A DNA stretch of 64,000 nt, from the NCBI RefSeq assembly GCF_003334815.1, contig NZ_QOWO01000012.1; one strand, 5' to 3'. Source of the stretch: Escherichia coli. Its GTDB lineage: Bacteria; Pseudomonadota; Gammaproteobacteria; Enterobacterales; Enterobacteriaceae. The first letter of the stretch is position 1; each line of letters begins with the position of its first letter. The notes under the pieces are model-generated. The model was not told the DNA's origin. It did not search any database and saw nothing but the letters and a program-made list of their open reading frames with translations. The translations under genes were made by a program, and so were the position numbers. Below are positions 18,150 through 19,329 of the stretch, in pieces.

Positions 18150-19001
18150 ATGTATCACGACGTCAGCTATCTGCTCTCCCGCCTGATCAACGGCCCGCTG
18201 TCCCTGCGCCAGATTTACTTTGCCAGCAGTAACGGCCCGGTGCCCGATCTTGCGTATCAGGTCGATTTTCCACGGCTGGAAATTGTGCTGGAAGGTGAGT
18301 TTGTTGATACCGGCGCTGGAGCAACGTTAGTTCCCGGCGATGTGCTGTACGTTCCTGCTGGTGGCTGGAATTTTCCACAATGGCAAGCCCCCGCTACTAC
18401 CTTTAGCGTGCTGTTTGGCAAACAGCAACTCGGCTTCAGCGTCGTGCAATGGGATGGCAAACAATATCAAAATCTGGCGAAGCAACACGTCGCCCGACGC
18501 GGCCCACGCATAGGTTCTTTTCTGCTACAAACGCTCAATGAAATGCAAATGCAGCCGCAGGAGCAGCAAACGGCAAGGCTTATCGTCGCCAGCCTGCTTA
18601 GCCACTGCCGCGATTTGCTTGGCAGCCAAATCCAGACCGCCTCACGCAGCCAGGCACTATTTGAAGCTATTCGCGATTATATCGACGAACGCTATGCCTC
18701 CGCGCTTACCCGCGAATCTGTTGCACAGGCGTTTTATATTTCGCCAAATTACCTCTCGCACCTGTTTCAAAAAACGGGGGCCATTGGTTTTAACGAATAC
18801 CTGAATCACACGCGACTGGAGCACGCTAAGACGTTATTGAAAGGCTATGACCTGAAGGTAAAAGAAGTGGCGCACGCCTGCGGCTTTGTCGACAGCAACT
18901 ACTTCTGCCGTCTGTTTCGTAAAAACACCGAACGCTCGCCGTCGGAATATCGCCGGCAGTACCACAGCCAACTGACAGAAAAACCGACTACTCCAGAATA
19001 A
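18150..19001 (+). CDS. yijO: AraC/XylS-family transcriptional regulator
   Basis: 283-aa ORF; C-terminal AraC-type helix-turn-helix (LSHLFQKTGAIGFNEYLNHTRLEHAKTLL). Confidence 0.85.
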   Translation: MYHDVSYLLSRLINGPLSLRQIYFASSNGPVPDLAYQVDFPRLEIVLEGEFVDTGAGATLVPGDVLYVPAGGWNFPQWQAPATTFSVLFGKQQLGFSVVQWDGKQYQNLAKQHVARRGPRIGSFLLQTLNEMQMQPQEQQTARLIVASLLSHCRDLLGSQIQTASRSQALFEAIRDYIDERYASALTRESVAQAFYISPNYLSHLFQKTGAIGFNEYLNHTRLEHAKTLLKGYDLKVKEVAHACGFVDSNYFCRLFRKNTERSPSEYRRQYHSQLTEKPTTPE

Positions 19002-19329
19002 GATGGGTTTGCTGCGGCGCAGAAAGCACTTTGCGCACCGCGCTCATTACCCGCTGCGGCTCACGCAGGAATGCGTAGATGCTGCATTGCACATAGCGGC
19101 AATGTTCAAATCGCTCGGCACCGGCAAGCTCGATATCCGTAATCAACAGAGCAACATCCGCCCGGCGGATATCCTCATCCGCTAAACGATTCTCCGTTCC
19201 CAGCGCGCCCTGAGTTTCAATGCTGACTCCCCACTTCTCTAACAGGCACAACTTTTCCAGCCGTTCCGCCGCCATATAAGTATGCGCCACGCCGCTTACG
19301 CAGGCGGTTACTGCCACCAGGTATGCCAT
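18988..19329 (-). CDS. frwD: PTS fructose-like EIIB component 2
   Basis: ORF 18988..19392 trimmed to MAYLVAVTACVSGVAHTYMAAE; PTS IIB fructose-type fold with CxSG phosphorylation-site motif. Confidence 0.85.
   Translation of the reverse strand: MAYLVAVTACVSGVAHTYMAAERLEKLCLLEKWGVSIETQGALGTENRLADEDIRRADVALLITDIELAGAERFEHCRYVQCSIYAFLREPQRVMSAVRKVLSAPQQTHLILE

Follow-up and report, generated by a model that had tools for sequence, protein, structure and literature searches.

We have studied yijO, a gene for a regulator of the AraC/XylS family, together with its neighbour frwD and the sugar phosphotransferase system (PTS) cluster beyond it, in a stretch of 64,000 nucleotides from Escherichia coli (contig NZ_QOWO01000012.1 of assembly GCF_003334815.1), which is called the window below. 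The main finding is that YijO is probably an operator-binding activator of two divergent promoters, those of frwC and ptsA. An earlier note on this DNA had suggested that YijO acts in trans on the region between these two genes, 23938..24245, and these coordinates are correct. Sites that resemble AraC-type operators do lie before both divergent promoters; the support that they give to the regulation itself is comparative. The note regarded YijO as the dedicated activator of a cryptic PTS. The regulatory guess is reasonable, but the framing is too narrow and out of date. It had also pointed to an overlap between yijO and frwD, and this overlap is real, is annotated and has already been catalogued. 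What is added here is the prediction of the operators, with comparative support.

In the RefSeq annotation of a near-identical genome the gene order is eptC> yijO> <frwD <pflC <pflD <frwB <frwC and then ptsA> fsaB> gldA>. For comparison we scanned one genome per species. This gave 80 loci, whose yijO orthologues are 66-100% identical in amino acids; they range over Escherichia, Citrobacter, Enterobacter, Kluyvera, Buttiauxella, Klebsiella and Edwardsiella. About 41 loci have the full E. coli arrangement, here called layout A. In layout B, found at nine loci in Kluyvera and Pseudocitrobacter (L023, L024, L028, L055, L056, L058, L060, L061 and L070), pflC and pflD are cleanly absent and the PTS genes, ptsA, fsaB and gldA are kept. 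In layout C (26 of 80) the block frwD-pflC-pflD-frwB-frwC and ptsA are both absent, leaving yijO> fsaB> gldA>.

The spacer between frwC and ptsA is 308 bp long. We aligned 77 such spacers from about 80 species, 51 of them from layouts A and B and 26 from layout C. The only conserved blocks are two CRP-type sites, two putative operators and two -10 hexamers, and the rest is variable:

23989..23994, minus strand: predicted -10 hexamer TATTGT of the frwC promoter, with a predicted start at about 23982
24018..24052, minus strand: putative frwC-side composite operator ATTACAAAAGTCCAGTAAATGGCCTTTTTATCCAC, with cores GTCCAG (24043 to 24038) and ATCCAC (24023 to 24018) 20 bp apart
24066..24081, no strand assigned: CRP site TGCGATCCGCCTCATA, TGCGA-N6-TCATA (TATGA-N6-TCGCA on the minus strand), at about -91.5 from the predicted frwC start
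24121..24136, no strand assigned: CRP-type site TGTGAGACGCGTCGCA, TGTGA-N6-TCGCA, at about -92.5 from the predicted ptsA start
24150..24184, plus strand: putative ptsA-side composite operator ATTACATTTGTCCAGCTTTTGGCAGATTTGTCACA, with cores GTCCAG (24159-24164) and GTCACA (24179-24184) 20 bp apart
24209..24214, plus strand: predicted -10 hexamer TATCCT of the ptsA(-fsaB-gldA) promoter, with a predicted start at about 24221

The ptsA-side operator is nearly invariant in the 77 sequences, including those of species that have neither ptsA nor the frw genes; both of its cores are held by the conserved block 24150-24190, ATTACATTTGTCCAGCTTTTGGCAGATTTGTCACATGG. At 24121-24136 conservation in the 77 sequences is confined to the two pentamers, with the bases between them free to vary, as is typical of a CRP site. 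Across genera the sequence between the spaced elements varies freely while the spacing stays rigid. On the ptsA side the CRP site stands 37 bp before the distal core in 73 of 76 spacers, and 50 bp separate this core from the -10 hexamer in 72 of 76; the corresponding distance between distal core and -10 hexamer at the frwC promoter is 49 bp in all 51. Further, the two halves of the spacer are mirror copies. Anchored on the GTCCAG core they are identical at 40 of 70 bases without a gap, compared with 34 matches for the best other 70-mer among the 127,860 in the window. If the two promoters are anchored on their -10 hexamers there is no similarity, and their spacings differ by 1 bp.

The consensus of the operators is ATTACA-N3-RTCCAG-N4-TGGC-N3-TTTRTC(C/A)A, 35-37 bp in length. 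Within the 64 kb the pattern ATTACA-N3-RTCCAG-N4-TGGC-N3-TTTRTC is found only at 24150-24181 (plus) and 24052-24021 (minus), even when three mismatches are allowed. Its core, ACAWWWRTCCAG, was counted 137 times when the 80 loci, 3.16 Mb in all, were searched on both strands, where about 3 would be expected. All 137 are located in this spacer or in its layout C remnant, and none lies upstream of yijO or gldA.

The anatomy of the spacer, its conservation, its fixed geometry and the exclusivity of the motif are established in this way, and binding of CRP is known from the literature. In enterotoxigenic E. coli H10407 a chromatin immunoprecipitation sequencing peak for CRP between ptsA and frwC contains the site TGCGATCCGCCTCATA, identical to 24066-24081 (PMC4287617), and ptsA-fsaB-gldA is listed as Crp-activated (PMC8085971).

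A few other readings of the conserved blocks were tried and rejected. TGGCAG-N5-TGTCA does not qualify as a sigma-54 promoter: its GG is not invariant (variants TTGACAG and TTAACAG occur) and the GC at -12 is absent. TTGTCA at 24177-24182 is not a -35 hexamer, as the conserved -10 is 26 bp off and no conserved hexamer lies 17 bp downstream. Sites of the ArcA, FNR, Cra and Mlc/NagC-like types, judged by eye, do not fit the conserved positions. A separate observation concerns the predicted 5' untranslated region of frwC, where a hairpin GGGCTT-loop-AAGCCC (23949-23964) stands directly before the Shine-Dalgarno sequence. Its outer four pairs are kept in about 40 of 51 species; the inner pairs and the loop vary.

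We propose that YijO and cyclic AMP-bound CRP would together activate two divergent promoters, one for frwC-frwB-pflD-pflC-frwD and one for ptsA-fsaB-gldA. Each promoter module would consist of a CRP site near -92, a composite operator, a poor -35 and a conserved -10. The operators are predicted to span about -71 to -35, with the CRP sites centred near -92.5 and -91.5. YijO bound beside the -35 would recruit RNA polymerase when a sugar-derived effector is present. The route under control would be uptake and phosphorylation of 1,5-anhydromannitol by the PTS, ring opening by PflD/PflC to 1-deoxy-fructose-6-phosphate, and further breakdown. Occupation of the operators by YijO, the activation, the transcription starts and the effector are what we infer from the aligned spacers and gene orders.

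The nearest likeness is to AraC at araBAD and RhaS at rhaBAD, where sugar-responsive activators of the AraC/XylS family work together with CRP. What is common is the double helix-turn-helix (HTH) of the regulator, the DNA-binding domain of YijO being 37% identical to that of AraC in a Foldseek comparison, and the predicted pair of direct-repeat cores, about 20 bp apart and ending at a poor -35, with CRP roughly one operator-length further upstream near -92. In addition, the half-site TGGCCTTTTTATCCACT presumably resembles araI1 (TAGCATTTTTATCCATA), which we take as a lead only. There are also clear differences. Unlike the genes for AraC and RhaS, yijO is not divergent from its presumed target but lies 5 kb off, where it converges on the final gene of one of the target operons and overlaps it. 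Further, here a single spacer carries two mirror modules for two divergent operons, and the N-terminal domain of YijO has no match to AraC_binding or cupin families in Pfam. With these differences in mind, YijO is probably, as judged from its likely operators, an AraC-type activator of a sugar pathway that is co-dependent on CRP.

The protein itself agrees with such a role in its C-terminal half. The earlier note had called the yijO product an AraC-family regulator, and NCBIfam, Pfam and Foldseek all bear this out. AraC-type models of NCBIfam match residues of about 160-275, and precomputed Pfam matches are PF12833 (HTH_18) and PF00165 (HTH_AraC), so that the two HTH motifs within about 100 C-terminal amino acids that characterise AraC/XylS proteins are present. 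Members of the family typically bind direct-repeat half-sites that adjoin the -35 of their target promoters and are switched by a small-molecule effector; in the sugar-responsive subgroup a further, N-terminal domain, a cupin or beta-barrel with helices, takes up the effector and serves dimerisation. In NCBIfam the matches, within the C-terminal 110 residues, are to generic AraC-type HTH models, and no equivalog model was hit. An AlphaFold2 model built with 27 orthologues has a mean predicted local distance difference test score (pLDDT) of 82. In this model the N-terminal domain, at residues of about 20-115, is rich in beta strands and is joined through a helical linker (121-180) to the DNA-binding domain with its double HTH (about 185-276). 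Against the PDB, Foldseek places the latter with solved AraC-type DNA-binding domains at template modelling (TM) scores of 0.74-0.92, normalised to the target, among them the domain of AraC itself.

Gene order gives a second line of evidence. yijO is the only regulator gene that is conserved in the cluster. Its reading frame, of 273-290 codons, is intact wherever the locus is complete, layout C with its 26 loci included. Layout C is found in Salmonella arizonae and diarizonae, the Klebsiella oxytoca group, Raoultella, Kosakonia, several Citrobacter, Silvania, Phytobacter and Trabulsiella guamensis. Its spacer between yijO and fsaB is homologous to the frwC/ptsA spacer of E. coli, of which it is a remnant. 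In most of these loci the fsaB start lies 84-98 bp from the operator core, compared with 86-94 bp in layouts A and B, which is where ptsA would start. In Citrobacter sp. R56 (L010) there are remnants of frwD, of the 5' end of frwC and of the 3' end of ptsA; as, in addition, the left junctions differ between lineages, layout C must have arisen by repeated deletion. The opposite polarity, with layout C as the ancestral state, was rejected on the same two grounds and because its spacers keep pieces of the frwC-side operator. Elsewhere, Buttiauxella sp. (L064) has a further deletion that runs from pflC into gldA. In Klebsiella spallanzanii and Phytobacter, both of layout C (L079, 12999-19195; also L030 and L071), extra genes follow gldA: a DeoR-family regulator, a glycyl-radical enzyme 35% identical to PflD, its activase, and nagB-like and nagA-like genes. 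Possibly these genes make up another radical sugar pathway, one that has become attached at this position.

By this comparison it is not the PTS that stays with yijO throughout but fsaB-gldA and a piece of the frwC/ptsA spacer. A dedicated PTS activator, as the earlier note had it, is not supported: 26 of 80 species have lost frwD through frwC as well as ptsA and have kept yijO, the ptsA-side operator and fsaB-gldA. The core partnership would be YijO, the ptsA-side operator and fsaB-gldA, since this trio survives the loss of both the PTS and PflDC. Its retention is a hint that YijO responds to a metabolite further down the pathway and not to the substrate of the PTS, in which case 1-deoxy-fructose-6-phosphate or hydroxyacetone would be candidates; overall, 1,5-anhydromannitol or its 6-phosphate would be added to these two. 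Truniger and Boos are said to have found in 1994 that hydroxyacetone induces gldA.

More distant relatives carry the pattern further. In a search of 1.84 billion cluster representatives we found full-length relatives of YijO at 34-54% identity, with gene contexts taken from metagenomic and genomic contigs. After the 54% relative comes a FrwD-type IIB gene, which it overlaps by 11 bp, and beyond this a PtsA-like gene that is divergent. For the 52% relative the next gene, after a gap of 7 bp, is a IIB gene; then comes ptsA, with frwC-frwB-pflD-pflC divergent from it. Relatives at 47% and 36% are convergent with a cluster of IIB, IIB, GatZ-like and IIC genes, the 47% one overlapping the first IIB by 6 bp. 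A second 47% relative is divergent from an fsa gene, and a 42% relative is convergent with and overlaps an fsa-type gene. The relatives at 47-54% have the same core in adjoining spacers, aimed at the flanking genes: five exact matches in 202 kb versus 0.19 expected.

Two of these contexts have features of their own. The metagenomic contig with the 54% relative (L082, 2800-7123) carries the FrwD-type IIB and a PtsA-like protein made of enzyme I, HPr and enzyme IIA, with no enzyme IIC on its 9.7 kb, and it has a third operator core upstream of a PhyH-family gene. In L088 and L094 (36-47%) the PTS cluster has a GatZ/KbaZ-like gene in place of the glycyl-radical enzyme, and L088 a transketolase as well; regulators of the YijO type therefore seem to serve frw-type PTS pathways of more than one kind.

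Several observations weigh against activation of these promoters by YijO. All loci were gathered through yijO, so that the co-occurrence of operator and yijO covers yijO-bearing genomes only. The transcription starts were set at 7 nt past each -10 hexamer, and the -92.5 and -35 positions therefore depend on these hexamers. A simple scan found no canonical sigma-70 promoter in the spacer, as is expected if the promoters depend on an activator, which is not proof of it. In the more distant relatives (36-47%; L088, L092 and L094) there is no recognisable copy of the motif. Full-length Foldseek matches of YijO (CsvR, Rns and ToxT) have low TM-scores of 0.31-0.38, and its N-terminal half matches no ligand-binding family in Pfam, in agreement with the description of this domain as divergent (PMC9308461). 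Surveys of 2016 and 2022 list YijO as uncharacterised (PMC4797297, PMC9308461), and our literature searches found nothing on the function of YijO or on frw regulation, nor any paper that ties YijO to its neighbouring genes. The regulation of ptsA-fsaB-gldA has been called "not completely clear", and that of the frw/pflDC genes is likewise given as unclear; the operon is dormant on dihydroxyacetone, which is no inducer of fsaB or gldA (PMC6643234). Finally, a screen of promoters against transcription factors reported binding of YijO to the rmf promoter (PMC6134199), so other targets of YijO may exist.

We now turn to the junction of yijO and frwD, where the features are:

18150..19001, plus strand: yijO coding sequence, an intact reading frame of 283 codons for a 283-aa AraC/XylS-family protein, stop TAA at 18999-19001
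18988..19329, minus strand: frwD coding sequence, 113 aa, a stand-alone fructose-like enzyme IIB of the PTS, ATG at 19329 and stop TAG at 18990-18988
18988..19001, no strand assigned: tail-to-tail overlap of yijO and frwD, 14 bp, with neither a spacer nor an intrinsic terminator

The claim in the earlier note that the two genes share 14 bp at their 3' ends is hence confirmed. Both gene ends are as in the RefSeq annotation of E. coli, where the overlap is already present, and frwD is the final gene of the frwC-frwB-pflD-pflC-frwD transcription unit. The region used as query is matched in all 5426 complete E. coli genomes, in 5416 of them over at least 80% in one place, and is 100% identical to strain C600 except for an IS5 insertion in the latter; the window is E. 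coli K-12 DNA. FrwD scores 224.1 bits against the NCBIfam equivalog NF007747 (cutoff 153), with residues 1-113 on profile positions 2-114 of 114, and because this match runs end to end the C-terminus of FrwD is real. A longer frwD reading frame, from 19392, is present in the six-frame list and would overlap pflC; the annotated start is at 19329.

At 52 other species-level loci frwD adjoins yijO, and none of these has an intergenic spacer. The overlap is exactly 14 bp in 45 of them and 4-29 bp in six, and in the remaining one the genes abut (0 bp). The stop codons vary (TAA or TGA in yijO; TAG, TAA or TGA in frwD) while their positions are fixed. The part of YijO that is involved is a non-conserved tail: the alignment consensus does not reach past about residue 278, and residues 277-281 have a pLDDT below 50. 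As only this disordered tail is concerned, the overlap is costless to YijO, whose stop codon reads as the complement of Leu-Ile codons of frwD. The position of the overlap is held by the C-terminus of FrwD. Across the species compared the overlap is thus ancient, not an accident of E. coli, and it is best read as a fossilised zero-spacer junction. The earlier note saw convergence as an odd layout for an activator and its target, but the end-to-end order is kept down to relatives of 47-54% identity and also, with a spacer, in a 36% relative.

The junction may nevertheless have a regulatory role of its own. Convergent neighbours with overlapping transcripts are known as convergent excludons, in which interference or processing by RNase III would make the expression of the two mutually exclusive, and the 14-bp overlap of the coding sequences forces the transcripts of yijO and frwD to overlap. 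Scans of both strands found no intrinsic terminator near the junction, and no RNA family in Rfam matched 16000-29000. As there is no room for terminators, both transcription units read into each other. ExcludonFinder has already listed frwD-yijO as a convergent excludon in at least 50% of 58 MG1655 transcriptomes (PMC12288877). It is shared with other catalogued cases that the genes converge, without a spacer, and that the transcripts overlap; it differs in that the coding sequences themselves overlap and that one partner is the presumed activator of the other.

A tentative reading, compatible with activation by YijO, is that the junction is an excludon device, in which, once the frw operon is induced, read-through from it is antisense to yijO and read-through from yijO is antisense to frwD/pflC. 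Collision or processing of double-stranded RNA would then lower the synthesis of the activator, a negative feedback. The lack of spacer and terminators and the transcriptome call speak for it, as do the abutment in 52 of 52 species, the short overlaps and the 7-bp gap in the 47-54% relatives, and a microarray signal of yijO in data sets on Rho inhibition (PMC9308461). However, the persistence of a zero spacer may be neutral, since nothing can be recombined or deleted there without gene damage. Moreover, 26 species have kept yijO after losing frwD, so that the feedback is dispensable, and an excludon call based on coverage is silent on function.

Somewhat less likely still is the broader idea that the lock between yijO and frwD was selected because the two are functionally coupled, either by such an antisense feedback or by FrwD reporting the phosphorylation state of the PTS to YijO. 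FrwD is the second, seemingly redundant enzyme IIB of the system, and at 36-54% identity a YijO-type regulator is still paired with a FrwD-type enzyme IIB, in clusters whose enzymes differ widely.

The arrangement of the two operators could also be read in another way. YijO might be a repressor or a dual regulator that loops the DNA between the operators, 116 bp apart core to core, and keeps the promoters silent until an effector arrives. We regard this as unlikely. AraC itself represses by looping. The spacer does hold two operators, and standard conditions leave the operon dormant (PMC6643234). However, the operators are mutually inverted and each has a fixed distance to its own -10, which fits two activation modules better, and species with the ptsA-side operator alone keep yijO.

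Least likely of all is that the adjacency is historical only, so that YijO regulates other genes, such as rmf or stress and biofilm genes, while an unlinked transcription factor binds the operators: the rmf result, an expression clustering that places YijO with stress regulators (PMC6055005) and the survival of yijO where most of the cluster is deleted are in its favour, but the same core is found in the adjoining promoter regions of yijO and of its 47-54% relatives and nowhere else nearby, the operators have AraC-type anatomy with direct-repeat cores 20 bp apart beside the -35, and the deletion layouts retain exactly yijO, operator and fsaB-gldA.

Upstream of yijO two elements can be recognised:

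18076..18102, plus strand: intrinsic terminator of eptC, GGCCAC...GTGGCC with T6 after it, 47 bp before the yijO ATG
18113..18122, plus strand: -10-like element GTTACTGTTT (TACTGT), the sole conserved element upstream of yijO and presumed to be part of a weak yijO promoter

This suggests that the yijO promoter is weak and compact, and built partly on the T-run of the eptC terminator. Autoregulation through the operators described above was considered and rejected, as all 80 loci lack an operator core upstream of yijO. Palindromes of the repetitive extragenic palindromic/bacterial interspersed mosaic element (REP/BIME) type are present between eptC and yijO (17940-18030 of the window), and the IS5 of C600 is in the same region. 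yijO belongs to a BIME 'attenuator' cluster according to PMC2965389. Some E. coli genomes lack the first 144 nt or so of the query.

The remaining genes of the two presumed target units are:

19331..20209, minus strand: pflC, forming with pflD the genes for a glycyl-radical enzyme and its activase, transcribed toward yijO
20175..22472, minus strand: pflD, the partner of pflC, likewise transcribed toward yijO
22523..22843, minus strand: frwB, forming with frwC the PTS IIB/IIC genes
22858..23937, minus strand: frwC, the partner of frwB
24246..26747, plus strand: ptsA, first gene of the ptsA-fsaB-gldA operon (24246..28535)
26759..27421, plus strand: fsaB, in the same operon
27432..28535, plus strand: gldA, in the same operon

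The same-strand genes pflD and pflC overlap by 35 bp (20175-20209). In the 50-bp spacer between frwB and pflD there is a GC-rich hairpin of 7 pairs with a T-rich tail (22497-22514, minus strand), which might act as an attenuator within the operon and so adjust how much PTS transcript is made relative to that for the glycyl-radical enzyme.

The pathway of the cluster has recently been assigned. In the account that a review (PMC12441222) gives of Ma et al. 2024 (JACS 146:26187), the PTS phosphorylates 1,5-anhydromannitol and PflD converts the 6-phosphate, strictly anaerobically, to 1-deoxy-fructose-6-phosphate. In the same account these are clusters of radical-mediated glycolysis with the same genes, where frwCBD/ptsA and pflDC make up the 1,5-anhydromannitol branch. 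The frw PTS can thus no longer be called cryptic, as it was in the earlier note. We take fsaB and gldA to belong to this branch too; in the later steps FsaB would presumably carry out an aldol cleavage and GldA would reduce hydroxyacetone. PflD and YbiW, which open the ring of anhydro-sugar 6-phosphates, we take to be dehydratases. No regulator of these clusters is named in the accessible literature, and YijO with its operators is proposed here for that place.

YijO is among the few dozen transcription factors of E. coli K-12 that are still without a function, and its cluster has recently been tied, in the review's account of Ma et al. 2024 (PMC12441222), to the anaerobic breakdown of dietary 1,5-anhydro-sugars by gut bacteria. 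The prediction is concrete, with two operators, their coordinates, co-dependence on CRP and expected starts, and it would yield a defined inducible promoter pair. Further, regulator, operator and the aldolase and dehydrogenase genes have been kept while the transporter and the radical enzyme were repeatedly lost, which indicates what part of the pathway YijO serves.

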